From the IMG/VR virus record IMGVR_UViG_2706794675_000010: a DNA stretch of 9,508 nt; one strand, written 5' to 3'. The translations under genes and the position numbers were made by a program. Origin of the DNA: a virus. Taxonomy: Duplodnaviria > Heunggongvirae > Uroviricota > Caudoviricetes. The notes beneath the pieces were generated by a model. That model saw nothing but the letters and a program-made list of their open reading frames with translations. It was not told where the DNA came from and made no database searches. Shown here in pieces: positions 243 through 9,508 of the stretch (its first letter is position 1; each line of letters begins with the position of its first letter).

Positions 243-1325
243 TCATTTTCTCTGGCTGATCTTTACCGGATAACCATCCCGAAGATCAATTAAGTGCTCC
301 GGTTCAGAAGCAAACCATGCATAAGATCCCCACGCCAATTCTGGTATTGCCTTTTTAAAAGGCAGAGCACTTCTGTCCATAAATGCCGTAAGGAATGCAA
401 GATTTTTCTCGCTGAACCCAGCGTCAATAGCCAAATGAGTGAGAGTAACTTTTCGTTCCCTGTTTATAGGCCCATCTGTCGCAACTACTTCAGTGAAAAC
501 TACAAGCATGTCCGAACCCGTTCGGTCCTCTCCCAAATCAATCAAAATAATATCTGGAAGTGCTTTTGAGGCATCAATATTCAGCCCCAATGCTTTTGCC
601 AATACATCATCCTGAGCAACAACTTTATTCCCGGATTCAGACAACCAGAGCACAGTTGGATTCTTAAGAAAATTAGGAGCAAAAACTTCGATGACGGCCT
701 TAGCTATTGTACTTGACGGGCCCGGAGCTAAAGTTCTCTTCTCTCCATTTGGGAAAGTGACGACTACGGCATCAGCAGCAATCACTGCCCCTGATTTCAA
801 TAAACGCAACCTAGCAAGAGCGGCTTTGTTCAAATGATTTTCTTGCCAGGAACTTATTGCACTCAGCAGCGAATCTCCTTCAAGCCCGGCATCAAAGAGT
901 GCTGCAAAAGAGCGATTCAAACTGTAACGAGGACGAGAGGATGTGGTGGGTATACCTTTACGCTCAACAATTGCATTGCAAGGTATTAGGCCATTTTTTA
1001 TAGTTTCATCACGTATTGGCTCACGCGTATTTTCCGCATACCATGCATCAGCAGGCCTTATCTTTTGTTTAGAGAAAGTCATCTTTACCCAGCTTTCTCT
1101 GGACGCATCATCAGTAAGAGCAGCCTGCGAATCTCCCATACTTACAACCTGGCTGGGCCTTATCCATCGCCCCAGCCCCTCAACCGCACCAGCATAAAAC
1201 ATGACAAAAATTGTTTTTGCAGCTATTTCCCGAATTAAATATCCACGATTCTCAGTCCCTTCAGGGAAAATTAATTGTAATCTTTCCCGGATAACATTCA
1301 ATGGGGGAACAACAGGCAGATTCAT
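243..1325 (-). CDS. Putative restriction endonuclease-like partner of the adjacent methyltransferase (possibly BsuBI/PstI-like Type II REase); function unproven
   Basis: 360-codon ORF. Its ATG (1325-1323) overlaps the TGA stop of the upstream methyltransferase gene (ATGA at 1322-1325), with GGAG about 10 nt upstream. N-terminal part looks winged-helix-like; C-terminal part has LPDIILIDLGED...MLVVFTEVVAT, which could be a degenerate PD-(D/E)xK core but lacks a clear ExK. Family guess rests on size, context and memory, not a search. Confidence 0.6.
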   Translation of the reverse strand: MNLPVVPPLNVIRERLQLIFPEGTENRGYLIREIAAKTIFVMFYAGAVEGLGRWIRPSQVVSMGDSQAALTDDASRESWVKMTFSKQKIRPADAWYAENTREPIRDETIKNGLIPCNAIVERKGIPTTSSRPRYSLNRSFAALFDAGLEGDSLLSAISSWQENHLNKAALARLRLLKSGAVIAADAVVVTFPNGEKRTLAPGPSSTIAKAVIEVFAPNFLKNPTVLWLSESGNKVVAQDDVLAKALGLNIDASKALPDIILIDLGEDRTGSDMLVVFTEVVATDGPINRERKVTLTHLAIDAGFSEKNLAFLTAFMDRSALPFKKAIPELAWGSYAWFASEPEHLIDLRDGYPVKISQRK

Positions 1326-3154
1326 GCAATCATCACTCCATAGAAACCAGCGATAGTTCTCTCAATAATCCGTCTGTGGACGCCAGCATCAATTAACGAT
1401 TGAATCTCCATCACCTGCTCCAGAGAAGGCAACGGGATTGAATTCAATTCATAGGCCGAAACAGCAACACTTCCGCTTATACACCTGAACGCCCGATCGA
1501 CAACATGCGAATTAAGTAGCATATCAATAACATCAGGGCGAACCGCAGAGAACAATCCGTTTGAATATACAATATTAATATGGTTTTCAACTACTACGCC
1601 ACCAGTTTCATCTATAAATCCCTGAGGTAAAATTGCCGCTAAAATCCTTCTGTCCTGTTCCTTCGATGTTGTCCGCTGAACAAGCACACATTCAGATTTT
1701 GTCACAAGGAAACCCTGTTGTGGGGTTATATCGATATAGGGAACATGATTTTTTCTGTCTGCACTAAAACGAAAACCAGCTGAAGTTATTGATTCCGCCC
1801 AGACTAATGGGTAGCTATTTTTTCCTTTCGTCGTACGCAACTGCGACTTAAATCGATTCCAGACTAACTGACCTGTAGAGACTGAGTATCCCAGATCAGC
1901 TAAACGCGTAGACATCTGTTTTAATACATTAAGAAAACAGGCATCATCTTTAACGCGTGGCAAAAGCCACGTTGCTCCACCTTTTTCTATATCAACATTA
2001 CCTATTTTCTCAATTTTTGCTTTGTTCAACCCCTTAGGGACAAGTGAGGATACCTGGGCCCGAACTTTATGTTCTCCCGCCTTGAATGCTGTCAACATTG
2101 TTTCCTGGAGAACATCGTCAAAGACCCCATCCCTGTCAGTGACGAAATCAAGGGCATACGGAGTAGTTTTTTCGGTCAAAAGGGTTCGCAGCGCGGTGAA
2201 ATACTGCCCACCAAGAAAAGAAGTTGGCGTAAGAAATGCAATAACTCCTGTTTTCTCTTTAACCATGCGAACAGCTAAGTCGGTGAACAATCCATATAGA
2301 TTTGCATGACCAAATAACGAACGAGAATATTTTTCTCTCGTTTTAATATCGAGAGTGACACGTCCGTAAGGCGGATTCCCTACCACAAGATCATAACCAG
2401 AAAATTTATCTTGCTGAAGCGCATCAGCAACAATAATTGTATCTTCAGGCAATCTACGTTTTACCTTTACACATAGTGGCATTAGTACAGATTCGAGCAA
2501 TACCAAACTCATCCAAGCCGCAAATGGATCGATCTCTATCCCCTTTAAACGACGACTGATTCTCCTCAACATCCATTCAGGGGAAGACCCCTTGTCTTTT
2601 TTTAACATTCGAATGGCTACTGGTGCCAAAAATGCACCGCCACCACACGCAGGATCAATAACCGATGCATGAGAAAAATCAACACCAGACTTTTCAGCCA
2701 GGTCCAAGAGACGCGCTACCAAAGGTGGGGGGGTATAGTAAGCCCCCAATTCCGAACGGTAAGCGGATGGCAGCATTACCGTATAAATTGACCCAATCAG
2801 ATATCCAGCGTCCTCCGCCGGAAATTGAGCAATAAGCTCACCTGTTCGTTCAGCGAGCTCGCGTGCATCACATGGAATGTCTTCTATGTAAACAGTGTGC
2901 GGTACTGCCCTCATTTTAATGCTGCTTTTTTGCTTTTTTGCAAGGGTATCCCAATATGCAGCTACGATGCTGAAGCAGTATGAGCGGGCATGCATCAACC
3001 TTGACTGCCCGGTTTTGTAATTGCCCGCATAACCTTTGGCCATGGCTTTACAAGTTTGATATCTTTCCAGATTAGAAAACTCATTATCTGTAAAAAAATC
3101 AAAATGTTGCACATTCATAATGTAAAATCCTAATGTATCAAACATGCGGGCCAT
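1322..3154 (-). CDS. Gamma-class N6-adenine DNA methyltransferase (TaqI/Eco57I-like), 610 aa with C-terminal target-recognition region
   Basis: Motif X-like GAYYTPP (aa 137-143), motif I VIDPACGGGAFL (verified on DNA, minus strand of 2627-2656), motif IV GNPPYG (minus strand of 2366-2377). Order X, I, IV with about 340 aa of C-terminal extension fits gamma-class amino-methyltransferases. Start uncertain: ATG at 3154 has a weak SD; an in-frame ATG at 3118 has AGGA 9 nt upstream. Confidence 0.85.
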   Translation of the reverse strand: MARMFDTLGFYIMNVQHFDFFTDNEFSNLERYQTCKAMAKGYAGNYKTGQSRLMHARSYCFSIVAAYWDTLAKKQKSSIKMRAVPHTVYIEDIPCDARELAERTGELIAQFPAEDAGYLIGSIYTVMLPSAYRSELGAYYTPPPLVARLLDLAEKSGVDFSHASVIDPACGGGAFLAPVAIRMLKKDKGSSPEWMLRRISRRLKGIEIDPFAAWMSLVLLESVLMPLCVKVKRRLPEDTIIVADALQQDKFSGYDLVVGNPPYGRVTLDIKTREKYSRSLFGHANLYGLFTDLAVRMVKEKTGVIAFLTPTSFLGGQYFTALRTLLTEKTTPYALDFVTDRDGVFDDVLQETMLTAFKAGEHKVRAQVSSLVPKGLNKAKIEKIGNVDIEKGGATWLLPRVKDDACFLNVLKQMSTRLADLGYSVSTGQLVWNRFKSQLRTTKGKNSYPLVWAESITSAGFRFSADRKNHVPYIDITPQQGFLVTKSECVLVQRTTSKEQDRRILAAILPQGFIDETGGVVVENHINIVYSNGLFSAVRPDVIDMLLNSHVVDRAFRCISGSVAVSAYELNSIPLPSLEQVMEIQSLIDAGVHRRIIERTIAGFYGVMIA

Positions 3155-5470: not shown

Positions 5471-5748
5471 NNNNNNNNNNNNNNNNNNNNNNNNNNNNNN
5501 NNNNNNNNNNNNNNNNNNNNNNNNNNNNNNNNNNNNNNNNNNNNNNNNNNNNNNNNNNNNNNNNNNNNNNNNNNNNNNNNNNNNNNNNNNNNNNNNNNNN
5601 NNNNNNNNNNNNNNNNNNNNNNNNNNNNNNNNNNNNNNNNNNNNNNNNNNNNNNNNNNNNNNNNNNNNNNNNNNNNNNNNNNNNNNNNNNNNNNNNNNNN
5701 NNNNNNNNNNNNNNNNNNNNNNNNNNNNNNNNNNNNNNNNNNNNNNNN
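5471..5748. other. Run of 278 N (assembly gap or masked sequence)
   Basis: Ns directly visible from 5471 to 5748. The gap removes the 3' end of the O-like gene and the 5' end of the DnaC-like gene. Track ORFs that are mostly X across this span are artefacts. Confidence 0.99.
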
Positions 5749-6591
5749 CACCCCCTCGCGCAATCTGGCCTTCCAGGCACTGAATGCGGATTTCTTCGGG
5801 TTTGCCCCGGCACGCAACGGGTATTCCCGCCAGACCTGTTCGAACACATCCGGATAATCCACTCGTCCCACAGGCTGCCCGGTGTTTTCCGGGGCTACCC
5901 GATCGGCTTCCCGCTGAATGGCGGAATCGGCTTCAGGCTGCTGCAGTTGGAGTGATTGCTCCGGCCTTGCGGTCATCACCTGCTGCACAGCGCCCGAATC
6001 GGCTTTCAGCGCATACGCTGAATCGGCTTCCGGTGTCGAGCCTGCTGGCTGACCAGGATTGACGGTCTGAACATCCCCTGCCTGGTTCGTGGCGTTTTTT
6101 ACGCCATGGACCATAGTGTTTTGATCTTCTTTATCTGTATCTTTATCTGTATCTGTCGTGACTCGTCGTGACATGTGCGTGACATTTCGTGACGCGCCGT
6201 GACAATCGCCATTTTGTTCCCGCTTTCTTTCCCTCTCTCGCTGCGCCCTCTTGCGCTCTGCAGGAGATTTTGCGGTTTGCGAAATATTGCCGTTGTCCTC
6301 TTTAAGCACCTGGCGTTTTTCCCATCCAGTGATTAAATCACCATCAAGTACCCGCCCCTGCATCGTCTGCAAAATTGAATCAATTACCTCTTCTGTCACG
6401 TCGAGCGCACTTGCCAAATCTTCTGTCGTGACATCAATGTGACCTCGCGTGACATTTCGTGACGCGCTCACCAGGAGGTGGATATACACTGCCATCACTG
6501 TTGCAATTGGCTGCCCTGACACCCTGGCAATTGTTCGCCACTTAGGGTCATTTGGCATGTCATGCCATAATCTGAGCCAGGCGTTAGCCAT
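5749..6591 (-). CDS. Replication initiator (lambda O-like / Rac YdaU-like replisome organiser); 3' end missing in the gap
   Basis: ATG at 6591-6589 with SD GAGGTGA 5 nt upstream (track start is a GTG at 6597). Occupies the O position between the CII-like and DnaC-like genes. Two iteron arrays lie inside the coding sequence, as for lambda ori inside O. Frame is continuous to the gap edge at 5749. Confidence 0.75.
6128..6203. repeat. Candidate replication origin, array 1: tandem 12-bp AT-rich repeat followed by five CGTGAC iterons
   Basis: TCTTTATCTGTA occurs twice in tandem (6128-6139, 6140-6151). CGTGAC recurs at 6157, 6167, 6178, 6188 and 6198, i.e. spacings of 10, 11, 10, 10 bp, about one helical turn. 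Confidence 0.6.
6395..6467. repeat. Candidate replication origin, array 2: (C/T)GTGAC iterons plus one inverted copy
   Basis: CGTGAC at 6427, 6448, 6458 and TGTGAC at 6438 (spacings 11, 10, 10); inverted GTCACG at 6395-6400. The 21-mer GCGTGACATTTCGTGACGCGC is identical at 6177-6197 and 6447-6467. Confidence 0.55.
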
Positions 6592-6662
6592 ACTCACCTC
6601 TTCTGATACCGAATCTTTTTACTCACGAGTTGCCGGGAGCGATTCGATATGGCTATTGTCAG

Positions 6663-7088
6663 TCAATGTACTGCCACAGCATTTCCTGCCGGGCCACCAC
6701 GGTTCATCTGATTGAAACCGGCGATTGCCACTGCGACAAAATCATCAGCGTCTCTCACCAGTCGTTCATGCGTCTCCACCAGTTCCCGAAAATAAGCTGA
6801 ACTGTGGCTGCGCATTCGAGCCACCAGCGGAGGTGGCATTGCCCTTTCGATCGCAGGTAACAACGCCTGAATTTTTTCAACAGCGTCAGGGGTGTCTTTA
6901 TCCAGCCAACGGAAAATCTTTTGGGTGTTGAGATAAAGCGTGTTGTGCTTGCTGTCGTTATGCAGAACCGGAAACGTCATTCCCAGTTCGAAATAAACCC
7001 TGGTTATTTCAGCTGCCGGAACTTTTTCACCGTCCGGATGCGCCCAGGCTTTCATCGCCATGCGGATGTGTTCATGCTTGATTTTCAT
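6663..7088 (-). CDS. YdaT-like protein (CII-position regulator of Rac-type prophages)
   Basis: 141-aa ORF beginning MKIKHEHI..., which I remember as the N-terminus of the E. coli Rac-prophage YdaT family. Its ATG (7088-7086) overlaps the TGA stop of the Cro-like gene (ATGA). Sits between the Cro-like and O-like genes. Confidence 0.65.
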   Translation of the reverse strand: MKIKHEHIRMAMKAWAHPDGEKVPAAEITRVYFELGMTFPVLHNDSKHNTLYLNTQKIFRWLDKDTPDAVEKIQALLPAIERAMPPPLVARMRSHSSAYFRELVETHERLVRDADDFVAVAIAGFNQMNRGGPAGNAVAVH

Positions 7089-7348
7089 GAATCAACCCCC
7101 GCCGATGGTTGTGTGTTAGCCTGAAACTCAGCAGGCAAGCCGTCAGTTGGGTTGGGGTAGGTTTTACTGTCAATCTCATGTGGGGTCACCACCCATCCCG
7201 TTGCTTCACACCAACGTAATATTTTTTCTCCTGTAAGTTTTGCACGCCCCGTTATAACGTGGCTGACCATCCCTTGGGATGCGCCAACAATCTCAGCAAA
7301 TGAACTCTGGGTTATATGAAAATGATGCAAATATTCTCCAAGATTCAT
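7085..7348 (-). CDS. Cro-like HTH transcriptional regulator (YdaS-like)
   Basis: HTH segment ITQSSFAEIVGASQGMVSHVITGRAKLTGEKI. Divergent from the cI-like gene across an operator-bearing intergenic region. ATG at 7348-7346 chosen; the track's longer ORF starts at a TTG at 7375. Confidence 0.7.
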   Translation of the reverse strand: MNLGEYLHHFHITQSSFAEIVGASQGMVSHVITGRAKLTGEKILRWCEATGWVVTPHEIDSKTYPNPTDGLPAEFQANTQPSAGVDS

Positions 7349-7384
7349 AATCCGCCCTATGTGATGTGTTACCAATGCATAATT

Positions 7385-7425
7385 AATAGCACTGTTATTT
7401 TTAAAAGTAAATAGTGATACTATTT
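7385..7425. promoter_or_regulatory. OR-like operator pair and divergent promoter region between the Cro-like and cI-like genes
   Basis: Perfect 17-bp palindrome AAATAGTGATACTATTT (7409-7425) and related AATAGCACTGTTATT (7385-7399), centres 25 bp apart. Candidate minus-strand promoter with -35 TTTACT and -10 TATTAA overlapping these sites (low confidence). Confidence 0.5.
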
Positions 7426-7459
7426 CAAAGTGATTAGCAATCTTATTAGAATTGGATGT

Positions 7460-7960
7460 ATGAAAAGAAAATCATTGTCAGACACCGACCTCAACGCCGC
7501 CAGAAGACTGAAAGAAATCTGGATGGCAAAGAAATCTCAGTTGGGATTGACTCAGGAACGTGCGGCGGAAATTATGGGGTTTTCAACACAAGGGGCGGTA
7601 AGTCACTACCTAAATGGTCAAACCCCACTAAACCTTGAGGCTGTTCTAAAGTTTGCTGGCTTACTGAAAGTTCCCCCTGAGTCAATCAGGCCAGACATGG
7701 TAGATTTGCTGCAAATTGCAAGGATGTATTGTCGAGAACCACAGCAAGATAACATAGTCGCATTACCAGCAGACACAGAACAAACAGAGGATGAACTACC
7801 GTTTGCCGTAGAGCCGATGGAACGAGATTTAATCCATACGTTCAGAGCTTTTCCGAAAGAAGATCAAGAACACATGCTTCAGGAGATGAAAGATAAAAAA
7901 GAATCAATGGATCGTACGGTTGCGCGGTGGTTAGCTGCACAAAAAGGCCGTCGCGCCTAA
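7460..7960 (+). CDS. cI-like XRE-family HTH transcriptional regulator (PaaR-like) without a recognisable S24 peptidase domain
   Basis: HTH segment LTQERAAEIMGFSTQGAVSHYLNGQTPLNLEAV. ATG at 7460 (track ORF starts at a GTG at 7430). Transcribed divergently from the Cro-like gene and followed on the same strand by a toxin-antitoxin pair, as in the paaR-paaA-parE arrangement I recall from E. coli O157:H7 prophages. Confidence 0.75.
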   Translation: MKRKSLSDTDLNAARRLKEIWMAKKSQLGLTQERAAEIMGFSTQGAVSHYLNGQTPLNLEAVLKFAGLLKVPPESIRPDMVDLLQIARMYCREPQQDNIVALPADTEQTEDELPFAVEPMERDLIHTFRAFPKEDQEHMLQEMKDKKESMDRTVARWLAAQKGRRA

Positions 7961-7979
7961 ATCAGAGGAGATATGTAAA

Positions 7980-8174
7980 ATGAGTACAGTCCTTTCCCCA
8001 ATGGTTTCAGAATTTGAGACAGTTGAGCAAGAAAATAGTTACAACGAATGGCTGCGGGCCAAAGTAGCAGCAAGCCTCGCGGATCCCCGCCCGGCGATTC
8101 CGCATGATGAGGTAATGGCGGAAATGGAACAAATTATTGCCCAAATTGCTGCTGCAACTCACAGAGGTGAATAA
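7980..8174 (+). CDS. Small antitoxin (PaaA-like) of a ParE-family toxin
   Basis: 64-aa ORF with GAGGAG 9 nt upstream. Its TAA stop overlaps the ATG of the downstream toxin gene (TAATG at 8172-8176). Small, acidic protein. Family named from context and memory. Confidence 0.7.
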   Translation: MSTVLSPMVSEFETVEQENSYNEWLRAKVAASLADPRPAIPHDEVMAEMEQIIAQIAAATHRGE

Positions 8175-8464
8175 TGTTACCCGTTTTATGGCTACCATCT
8201 GCTCGTGATGATTTGCGCCAGATCGTAGCCTACATAGCTAAAGAAAATCCCGCGGCAGCACGCAGAATGAAAATTCGAATTGAAACATCCGTTTTGCCGC
8301 TCACAGAGCATCCTTACCTGTATCCTCCAAGCGAGCGAGTTCTTGGTCTTCGTGAAATTGTAACTCATCCTAACTACATCATCCTTTACCGAGTAACAGC
8401 ATCAAGCATAGAAGTAGTAAATATTGTGCATTCTCGAAGACAGTATCCAGGCAAAAACAGTTAA
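8174..8464 (+). CDS. ParE/RelE-superfamily toxin (ParE-like)
   Basis: 96 aa with the typical ParE pattern: MLPVLW...ARDDLRQIVAYIAKENPAAA...HPYLYPPSERVLGLREIVTHPNYIILYRV...IEVVNIVHSRR. SD AGAGGTGA upstream; translationally coupled to the antitoxin. Confidence 0.85.
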   Translation: MLPVLWLPSARDDLRQIVAYIAKENPAAARRMKIRIETSVLPLTEHPYLYPPSERVLGLREIVTHPNYIILYRVTASSIEVVNIVHSRRQYPGKNS

Positions 8465-8480
8465 TTATTCCCGCCGACAG

Positions 8481-8503
8481 AACCACCTTAGGGTGGTTTT
8501 TTC
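8481..8503 (+). terminator. Rho-independent terminator after the toxin gene
   Basis: AACCACC-TTAG-GGTGGTT forms a 7-bp stem with a 4-nt loop and runs into TTTTTT (8497-8502), 17 nt after the parE-like stop. Confidence 0.6.
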
Positions 8504-8520
8504 TTGCCCCAACAAAAAAC

Positions 8521-8562
8521 AATAGCGATGCTATTTACATCAAAAAAAATAATGATGCTATT
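8521..8562. promoter_or_regulatory. OL-like operator pair (same motif as OR), candidate early-left promoter region
   Basis: Perfect palindrome AATAGCGATGCTATT (8521-8535) and AATAATGATGCTATT (8548-8562), centres 27 bp apart. Both match the half-site consensus AATAGY-N3-RCTATT seen at 7385-7425. Candidate -35 TTTACA at 8534-8539, with only weak -10 candidates. Confidence 0.45.
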
Positions 8563-8743
8563 GTTTCAGGCGTCAACCCACCCCGCCCCACAGAATGCAG
8601 GGCAATACTTCGAGTTACCAGACAGTGGTCAGGGGTTAAGTAGCCAGCCCGAGGCGTAAGAACATGACGGCAGGGTTCAATCTTTAACTATGCAGCAGGT
8701 TTTTTGTTCCGCCACCCCGGCGTTAAGGGGAAATGAGGTCAGC

Positions 8744-8896
8744 ATGGATACTATCGATCTTGGCAACAACGAATCTCTGGTGTGCGGCGTGTTCCCTAAC
8801 CAGGATGGAACGTTTACCGCCATGACGTATACCAAAAGCAAAACGTTTAAAACCGAATCTGGCGCGCGTTGCTGGTTAGCCAGAAACACTGACTGA
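8744..8896 (+). CDS. Hypothetical small protein, 50 aa
   Basis: ATG at 8744 with GAGG about 6 nt upstream (the track's longer ORF from 8690 lacks an SD). First gene downstream of the OL-like sites; not arginine-rich, so not obviously N-like. Confidence 0.4.
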   Translation: MDTIDLGNNESLVCGVFPNQDGTFTAMTYTKSKTFKTESGARCWLARNTD

Positions 8897-8907
8897 TGAG
8901 GCTGACG

Positions 8908-9273
8908 ATGGAATTTAAAGATTTACCGTCTGATGTACAGAAAACAGCAGCTCATACATTGCATTCTGTGCTGCGAGAAATCGGGAAAGATATTGCAAGC
9001 GAGCCAGCAAAAGATCTGGCCCGGAAAATCAAGACCGCTTTCGTTGAGCTTTATAATGTTGGCACTGACTCTGAAACTGTCGAGACCAAGACCGTAAGTT
9101 CACCAATATTCTCACTTGAGCCAAGCGTATTATCAGGTGAAATATGCACCGAGATTTCCAGCGAACTGCTTCCGGTAATACGAGAAGCAATTCGCCGTCG
9201 CGGTTTGGATGGAAGTTATGATCATGACGTTCTGCAAGTTCTCAGGACAATGGTGACTTCACTGGGGATTTGA
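8908..9273 (+). CDS. Hypothetical protein, 121 aa
   Basis: ATG at 8908 with GAGG 6 nt upstream; an alternative ATG at 8896 overlaps the upstream stop (TGATG). Acidic protein, no family recognised. Confidence 0.5.
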   Translation: MEFKDLPSDVQKTAAHTLHSVLREIGKDIASEPAKDLARKIKTAFVELYNVGTDSETVETKTVSSPIFSLEPSVLSGEICTEISSELLPVIREAIRRRGLDGSYDHDVLQVLRTMVTSLGI

Positions 9274-9508
9274 TCCCTGCGTCCTCTAAGCTTTTGATAT
9301 AGCGGTCCTCCAAGAAGCGGTAAATTTTGTCGAAATCATCTTTTCCCTCTGGTTTATTCAGAGGATTACAGGACCCGTAAGTAGCGGCATACATTTCAAC
9401 CGTTTGGTAATGACTCCAACTTATTGATAGTGTTTTATGTTCAGATAATGCCCGATGACTTTGTCATGCAGCTCCACCGATTTTGAGAACGACAGCGACT
9501 TCCGTCCC

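Follow-up and report, generated by a model that had tools for sequence, protein, structure and literature searches.

A putative CI-analogue repressor operon with a PaaA-ParE passenger in an IS1-bounded prophage remnant of Shigella sonnei

Described paaR-paaA-parE systems and the operon in the window

The three-component toxin-antitoxin family paaR-paaA-parE has two paralogues in Escherichia coli O157:H7, whose antitoxins, PaaA1 and PaaA2, show no cross-neutralization, as summarized in PMC4803016 from Hallez et al. (2010). Toxicity, neutralization, and addiction have been shown for the O157 homologues (PMC8630535, PMC4803016). In CP-933P, PaaR2 is a functional CI analogue, with YdaS as the Cro analogue and YdaT as the CII analogue; operators bound by PaaR2 and YdaS are found in the divergent intergenic region and, past the toxin-antitoxin pair, at a PL-like promoter, the paaR2-paaA2-parE2 locus is bistable and addictive, and PaaR2 has no RecA-cleavage motif (Jurenas et al. 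2021, PMC8630535). The paaA2-parE2 genes stand there in place of rexA-rexB (Prolic-Kalinsek et al. 2023, PMC9986795), and octamerization of PaaR2 has been reported in the literature. Here, we analyzed a 9,508-nucleotide (nt) stretch of DNA (IMG/VR record IMGVR_UViG_2706794675_000010), referred to as the window, to whose numbering all coordinates refer unless another locus is named. A first-pass annotation had described three co-directional genes in this stretch, encoding a cI-like helix-turn-helix (HTH) regulator, an antitoxin of 64 amino acids (aa), and a ParE-type toxin of 96 aa, and all three were recovered in the open reading frame (ORF) map and by Pfam.

Taking the sequence together with the analogy to the published systems, the locus is very probably a CI-analogue repressor operon with an addictive PaaA-ParE passenger, similar to that of CP-933P but with a lambda-cI-type head and operators of its own. 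Gene content, homologies, domain architecture, operator distribution, promoter placement, and genomic context were established here from the window and its relatives. The expectation that the system was probably a known one was correct, since both the kind of system and its coupling to the switch have already been published, the coupling having been shown experimentally for CP-933P (PMC8630535). What is new is a third regulator and immunity type, in which a cI-type head sits on a PaaR/DicA-type tail. A description of this cI-headed type was not found in the searchable literature, and the type is widespread in databases under generic names. The importance of the finding is modest, and the understanding of how such systems work is unchanged by it.

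The regulator (7460..7960, plus strand; 166 aa from an ATG) is followed, after a gap of 19 nt, by the PaaA-family antitoxin (7980..8174, plus strand; 64 aa) and then by the full-length ParE-family toxin (8174..8464, plus strand; 96 aa). As noted in the first-pass annotation, the antitoxin and toxin genes overlap by a single base, with the antitoxin stop codon TAA (8172-8174) and the toxin ATG (8174-8176) forming TAATG (8172-8176). Shine-Dalgarno-like sequences were found 9 nt upstream of paaA (AGAGGAG) and 4 nt upstream of parE (GAGGTG), and no terminator-like site was found between the three genes. The intrinsic terminator that had been reported downstream of the toxin was also seen (8479..8505, plus strand), as a hairpin with a G+C-rich 9-bp stem (8479-8487 paired with 8492-8500) and a TTAG loop, where a run of six Ts (8497-8502) begins inside the final stem positions and is followed by CTT. 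The fold has an energy of -15.1 kcal/mol (z = -3.3), and an equally good fold was obtained in 1 of 200 shuffles. The consensus terminator scan of 7000-8900 did not call this hairpin, probably because the T-run was absorbed by greedy stem extension. In an O104:H4 relative, the hairpin and T-run are retained 3' of the toxin, with a loop substitution that leaves the stem intact, and the other O157 type has a different hairpin and T-run at the corresponding position. The spacing of the genes and the terminator after the toxin suggest that the regulator, paaA, and parE form a single transcription unit.

Pfam assigned the three proteins to PaaA2 (PF21217, E 3e-23), ParE_toxin (PF05016, E 1.8e-17), and, for the regulator, HTH_3 (E 8e-9). 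PF21217 was the sole domain matched in the antitoxin, which is without a DNA-binding domain. Among PDB entries, the antitoxin matched PaaA2 (3zbe, E 1.4e-23) and the toxin matched ParE2 (5cw7, E 6.7e-37). When compared with diverged homologues, the ratio of nonsynonymous to synonymous substitution rates (dN/dS) was 0.05-0.14 across the regulator, antitoxin, and toxin (0.07-0.14 for the antitoxin and 0.05-0.06 for the toxin singly) and 0.05-0.18 across all five genes of the immunity region, dS being near saturation, so that these ratios are rough. The family matches and the low dN/dS indicate that the genes are more than chance ORFs, and all five immunity-region genes are, as judged from these ratios, under purifying selection. 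A 51-aa ORF at 8504-8659, which overlaps the left-operator-like region described below, was taken as spurious.

We compared the operon with two O157-type loci. One of these, L004, is of the PaaR2 type: the regulator begins with MQKKE as published, ParE2 matches the PDB chain at 92/92 residues, and O157:H7 genomes contain the module with a DNA identity of at least 99%. Of 5426 complete E. coli genomes, 633 have this module. The other, L002, comes from an O157:H7 strain and is the second paralogue locus; the name PaaR1 type is given to it provisionally, by elimination, as there are two loci per O157 genome and the other one is that of ParE2. The likeness to the O157:H7 systems that had been pointed out in the first-pass annotation holds for the toxin-antitoxin pair, with the window ParE being 86% identical to that of L002 and 67% to ParE2 (L004; 92 aa), and the window PaaA 77% identical to that of L002 and 75% to PaaA2 (L004; 56 aa). 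It does not hold for the whole of the regulator, which aligns over its C-terminal 44 to 64 residues only. The toxin had also been labeled as a gyrase poison. ParE2 of O157 is reported neither to bind GyrA59 nor to inhibit gyrase (PMC10886550), though it induces the SOS response and colocalizes with the nucleoid (PMC8630535). Gyrase poisoning is thus not established for this ParE clade and, by analogy with ParE2, the label is best dropped at present.

The regulator and its putative operators

Residues 2-81 of the regulator align to the N-domain of lambda cI (phmmer against PDB, 1lmb; E 3e-9). In the AlphaFold model, five helices form a confidently predicted N-domain (residues ~1-91). The linker that follows (~92-118) is disordered, with a predicted local distance difference test score (pLDDT) below 50 at residues 92-112, and leads to a PaaR/DicA-type helical C-terminal domain (~119-166) with helices at 119-129 and 133-165. 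A Foldseek comparison of the N-domain with lambda cI N-domain structures (1lmb, 3kz3) gave template modeling (TM) scores of 0.85-0.94, root mean square deviations of 1-2 Å, and 36-40% identity. Only the last 64 residues of the regulator align with the PaaR1 type (56% identity), and only the last 44 align with PaaR2 (52% identity). The C-terminal stretch also matches the DicA model NF007257 (E 7e-8). A sequence search of PDB did not return a PaaR2 structure. No Pfam match to Peptidase_S24 was found in the regulator, which at 166 aa has a two-helix C-terminal domain, and with no S24/LexA-type domain RecA-stimulated autocleavage is not expected. The regulator is a homologue of the lambda CI family in its N-domain only, and not a full member; on these alignments, it is not orthologous to PaaR1 or PaaR2 in the DNA-binding domain. 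A GTG start at 7430 (176 aa) was considered and rejected, since the full-length homologues all begin with MKRKSL and RefSeq calls the ATG at 7460; moreover, the cI alignment begins at residue 2, and the -10 element of the candidate promoter would fall inside the extension.

A 15-bp palindrome, AATAGYRATRCTATT, was found at three sites between the regulator and ydaS (7385, 7410, and 7433) and at two sites 3' of the terminator and 5' of ydfA (8521 and 8548), here called right-operator-like (OR-like) and left-operator-like (OL-like), respectively. A motif search over the 9.5-kb window returned nine strand-matches, corresponding to these five sites and all falling within 7385-7447 and 8521-8562, and none of 200 shuffles reached nine matches. 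The OR1-like putative operator, AATAGCACTGTTATT (7385..7399), overlaps the candidate rightward (minus-strand) promoter and is conserved in L001 and in the O104:H4 prophage (L003). The OR2-like putative operator, AATAGTGATACTATT (7410..7424), has no mismatches and abuts the -35 element of the candidate regulator promoter, with its center ~43 bp upstream of the ATG. The OR3-like putative operator, ATTAGCAATCTTATT (7433..7447), is weaker, with three mismatches, and falls on the promoter hexamers and the stretch between them; L011, a metagenomic phage contig, has a site at the corresponding position. On the far side of the toxin, the first OL-like putative operator, AATAGCGATGCTATT (8521..8535), has no mismatches, and the second, AATAATGATGCTATT (8548..8562), has one mismatch and repeats the first in direct orientation at a spacing of 27 bp; L003 and L011 have an equivalent pair 3' of their cargo genes. 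The O104:H4 prophage, with 78% identity in the regulator, repeats the distribution over OR and OL, and L011 has the same regulator N-domain with other cargo and a second operator cluster beyond that cargo.

The consensus scan for promoters and terminators covered 7000-8900 and gave, among its hits, a candidate promoter resembling the lambda repressor-maintenance promoter (PRM), TTCAAA-17-TAGAAT (7424..7452, plus strand), which was the only hit kept, because of where it lies and how well it is conserved. Among relatives, both PRM-like hexamers are invariant and the OR sites are conserved, and the neighboring DNA diverges. The -10 element, TAGAAT, ends 7 nt 5' of the regulator ATG at 7460, which suggests a leaderless mRNA. 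The OR-like sites are spaced by 25 and 23 bp, and their centers lie ~68, ~43, and ~20 bp upstream of the putative leaderless start, positions which we take to be close to the geometry of OR1, OR2, and OR3 relative to PRM in lambda. The acidic residues aligned with E34 and D38 of lambda, the positive-control patch of cI, are conserved in the regulator, and together with the site geometry this conservation makes auto-activation of the regulator from the middle, OR2-like site plausible. For paaR2 and lambda cI, a leaderless start has been demonstrated (PMC8630535). A further promoter-like site, TTGACT-17-AATTAT (7547-7575, plus strand), lies within the regulator coding sequence; with hits at chance level in number, it is probably meaningless.

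For the two outward promoters, the rightward one (PR) and the leftward one (PL), the candidates have poor -10 elements, and their -35-like hexamers, TTTAC(A/T), each border an operator. The candidate PL-like promoter into ydfA (8534..8564, plus strand) was read by eye, with a -35 element, TTTACA, that flanks the first OL-like site and a -10 element, within the second, that was not confidently placed. It was assigned as PL-like, provisionally, by its likeness to PL933P (PMC8630535).

Divergent to the regulator lies a ydaS-like HTH gene (7085..7348, minus strand), a putative Cro analogue that shares the immunity type of the regulator. It encodes 87 aa from the ATG at 7348, with the ORF reaching a TTG at 7375, and the 87-aa form is the one annotated by RefSeq in L001; its match to HTH_3 (E 5e-4) is under the Pfam cut-off. 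The protein is 85% identical to its O104:H4 counterpart and 36% identical to YdaS of the PaaR1 type (L002), and BLASTP gave no hit between it and YdaS of the PaaR2 type (L004). Next comes a ydaT-family gene (6663..7088, minus strand; 141 aa; Pfam YdaT_toxin, PF06254, E 5e-9), a putative CII analogue with 81% identity to the counterpart in L002 and 77% to that in L004. A copy of the YdaT primary operator (OM), TTGATTTTCATGAATCAA (7078..7095), spans the end of ydaS and the start of ydaT and has no mismatches to TTGATTN6AATCAA, a single such match being not statistically rare alone. In CP-933P, this sequence at the ydaS/ydaT junction is bound by YdaT and the operator has been footprinted (PMC9986795), and a CII-like activator role has been shown for the CP-933P YdaT homologue (PMC8630535, PMC9986795).

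The operator pattern at both clusters, repeated in two diverged relatives, supports a role of the regulator as the switch repressor of the immunity region. In the first-pass annotation, the regulator had been proposed to serve also as the apparent prophage repressor, and the divergent Cro-like/CII-like pair, the cI-homologous N-domain, the OR/OL-like putative operators, and the candidate promoter set for a leaderless mRNA all speak for this, with the qualifications that the host element is a remnant and not a prophage and that the repressor has no S24 domain. It could instead be argued that the regulator is dedicated to the toxin-antitoxin genes and has no wider role in immunity, which would accord with the first description of the family, where the paaR promoter is repressed by PaaR and partly by PaaA-ParE (as summarized in PMC4803016). 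We consider this highly improbable, because operator copies are also found 3' of the operon, before the ydfA unit, in relatives as well as in the window, and because the same head and operators are found with unrelated cargo. In addition, the divergent Cro analogue co-varies with the regulator type, and PaaR2 of CP-933P chiefly represses ydaS-ydaT and PL (PMC8630535).

Some observations do weigh against the locus being a CI-analogue repressor operon with an addictive passenger. The third OR-like site is weak, promoter-like hits in the region are no more numerous than in shuffles, and both PR and PL fell under the scan threshold and are not confidently placed. The model of the regulator C-terminal domain is only moderately confident (pLDDT 53-86), and a gyrase target is unsupported for this ParE clade, given the report of ParE2 as non-inhibitory to gyrase (PMC10886550). 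Finally, the S. sonnei element has lost most of the genes that the repressor would silence, so the switch may be partly vestigial.

In the mechanism we propose, which for toxicity, neutralization, repression and activation, leaderless translation, and addiction draws on the homologues, the operon would occupy the cI-rexA-rexB position of a degraded lambdoid (Qin/CP-933-like) immunity region. The regulator, as the CI analogue, would bind the 15-bp palindromes at OR and OL through its cI-type N-domain and would oligomerize through its PaaR/DicA-type helical C-terminal domain, as suggested by the octamerization of PaaR2. Bound at OR, it would silence the ydaS-ydaT-replication operon, and at the OR2-like site, next to the -35 element, it would probably stimulate its own leaderless transcript, on which paaA and parE would be carried, with translational coupling via TAATG. 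YdaT, acting at the operator at the ydaS/ydaT junction, may provide a second route into the operon, resembling that of CII and the repressor-establishment promoter (PRE). PaaA would neutralize ParE through direct binding. If the locus were lost, the labile PaaA would decay and ParE, predicted to be DNA-damaging and nucleoid-associated, would kill or arrest the cell; the PaaA-ParE pair would in this way act as an addiction module that stabilizes the immunity region.

Heteroimmune relatives, cargo, and repressor modularity

The window and paaR2-paaA2-parE2 of CP-933P (PDB 3zbe, 5cw7) both have ydaT/ydaS on one strand and regulator-paaA-parE on the other, and in both the toxin is followed by a terminator, an OL/PL-like region, and ydfA. 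They also have in common a promoter, in the window a candidate one, whose position would suit a leaderless regulator mRNA, and a regulator without an S24 domain, and the YdaT operator of the window equals the published consensus. However, PaaR2 has 123 aa with an unrelated head sequence, compared to the 166 aa and lambda-cI-type N-domain of the window regulator, and its operator repeats are of the GTTTAGTAA type, unlike the AATAGYRATRCTATT of the window; four inverted repeats have been reported for CP-933P, whereas the window has three OR-like sites with lambda-like spacing. The second O157 paralogue locus, L002, contains the closest characterized-family relatives of the window toxin and antitoxin and has the same ydaT, ydfA, and dicB flanks, but its regulator N-domain, YdaS (36%), and operators are all of another immunity type.

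Further away, the window shares with lambda cI-rexA-rexB the cI-type N-domain, three OR-like sites, sites in the OL position, and cargo between the repressor and OL. In contrast to lambda, the window regulator has the PaaR/DicA helical C-terminal domain instead of an S24/LexA-type domain, the recognition helix and operator sequence are not alike, the cargo is a toxin-antitoxin pair and not RexAB, and YdaS and YdaT stand in for Cro and CII. The Qin prophage of K-12 resembles the window element in its chromosomal neighborhood (from the ydfI side to the ynf/dms side) and in the downstream ydfA, and the window regulator is in the position of dicA. Qin differs in having no paaA-parE between dicA and ydfA, and no similarity to the window proteins was found for the DicA N-domain or for DicC.

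Judging from these comparisons, a single block comprising the repressor head, the operators, and the Cro analogue has been swapped, with the toxin-antitoxin pair, YdaT, and the repressor tail being kept, which makes the locus a classical heteroimmune mosaic. When the DNA 3' of the toxin was aligned, all three immunity types were nearly identical from ~8576 on, and this near-identical stretch of ~110 nt (8576-8690, from the OL-like sites to ydfA) marks an edge of the immunity cassette. Folding of the ~110 nt between OL and ydfA gave no sign of structured RNA (z +0.27), and Rfam matched nothing in the whole window at the gathering threshold or in 8440-8900 at E <= 1. The three-component PaaA-ParE arrangement is thus not bound to one regulator, as the same cargo is found behind heteroimmune repressors that have only the C-terminal module in common. 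The finding lends support to Jurenas et al., who see in 'PaaR' simply the CI counterpart of the prophage and in the toxin-antitoxin genes a passenger like rexAB.

The likeness to rexAB raises another reading of the cargo, namely that the main present role of PaaA-ParE is anti-phage defense or superinfection exclusion by abortive infection, in which ParE would be freed upon infection, through depletion of the antitoxin or titration of the repressor. The location of the pair, with the repressor gene on one side and OL on the other, is exactly that of rexAB, and in a relative with the same repressor head this slot contains HipA_2 kinase-like and DUF3037 proteins, typical of prophage defense or moron slots; a type II restriction-modification system is, in addition, part of the same remnant. 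We nevertheless regard a defense role as rather unlikely. Among the PADLOC defense models, matches were found for the restriction-modification genes only and not for the regulator, the antitoxin, or the toxin, and the only functional data for the family concern plasmid stabilization and addiction, the toxin not being set free when transcription switches (PMC8630535). Both roles could coexist, and the same anatomy fits either.

More generally, the PaaR/DicA-type C-terminal helical module could be a portable oligomerization domain that accepts swapped heads (PaaR1, PaaR2, DicA, and lambda-cI types) and thereby makes new immunity types; the slot from the repressor to OL would then be a general cargo slot, and 'PaaR' would not truly be a toxin-antitoxin component. 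We put this forward tentatively, as a possibility that we doubt more than we favor. No description of such head-swapping modularity of the PaaR/DicA tail was found in the searchable literature.

Tandem two-headed regulators of 240-255 aa (P0013-P0023; L011 at 6001-6735 of that contig, L012, and L013) were also observed, in which a cI-type head and a PaaR1-type head are joined to a PaaR-type tail. These regulators are divergent to ydaS-ydaT and are followed by HipA_2 (PF20613) and DUF3037 proteins in place of PaaA-ParE, with AATAG...CTATT operators at OR and beyond the cargo. The tandem-head 244-aa repressors of metagenomic phages may be head-swap intermediates or dual-specificity repressors.

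The host element and its distribution

The window was 100% identical to stretches of two complete chromosomes (L005 and L008), and its ends (1-91 and 9406-9508) are IS1 ends, which recur nearby in the same chromosomes. Bounded by IS1, the host element is a prophage remnant of ~9.3 kb in Shigella sonnei, that is, a decayed lambda-like element and not a prophage. No integrase, lysis, or structural genes were seen in the remnant in the S. sonnei chromosomes examined, so no prophage is left to induce. In these chromosomes, the element is located between a mannitol-dehydrogenase gene and the ynf/dms genes, which we take to be the Qin neighborhood of K-12, given the common ydfA-ydfB-dicB and the K-12 map.

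Each of the three operon proteins was found unchanged on at least 1000 contigs, named Shigella sonnei or Shigella. The module with this type of regulator was present over at least 80% of its length in 72 of the 5426 complete E. coli genomes (2 of them at ~98% identity), and some relative of paaA-parE in 842 of the 5426. In the phage genome collection, no record covered at least 80% of 7000-8700, the best reaching 13%; this type of module is therefore known from chromosomes and not from deposited phage genomes.

In an element so heavily decayed, with IS1 on both sides and the integrase, lysis, and structural genes gone, the operon might be an inert relic of a dead prophage, unexpressed or non-functional. 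This is hard to reconcile with its intactness and with purifying selection, and we give it very little credence: the three ORFs are intact and full length compared to the solved homologues, the dN/dS values lie at 0.05-0.14, the promoter, operators, ribosome-binding sites, and terminator are all intact, and the proteins are identical across the contigs counted above. What is left of the element consists of a restriction-modification pair, replication genes, the immunity region with the toxin-antitoxin genes, and ydfA. The S. sonnei remnant is largely made up of two addiction-type modules, the toxin-antitoxin operon and the type II restriction-modification pair, flanking replication genes, and this fits the idea that such modules guard prophage fragments against deletion.

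Downstream of ydaT lie an O-like ORF, an IstB/DnaC-like P gene, and genes for DUF1627 and DUF977 proteins. The window contains a run of 278 Ns at 5471-5748, which masks 474 bp found in the identical chromosomes (L005, 7104-7577) and extends over the point where the O-like replication gene meets the DnaC/IstB-like one; any ORF called across the run is an artefact. The type II restriction-modification pair (243-1325 and 1322-3154, both minus strand), located farthest out on the early-right operon side, is intact, with overlapping stop and start codons. It encodes a BsuBI/PstI-type endonuclease (PADLOC REase_II, E 2.8e-128) and an Eco57I/N6-adenine methyltransferase (MTase_II, E 1.8e-300), and the methylase gene is split or shortened in L009 and L010.

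On the opposite side, 3' of the OL-like region, ydfA (8690-8896, plus strand; DUF1391, E 3e-28) is directly followed by a gene for a 125-aa protein with no family match (8896-9273, plus strand). After this unit comes an IS1 copy in L007, L008, and L010, or host genes directly in L005, and dicB is retained further on only in L006 and L009 among the S. sonnei chromosomes examined.

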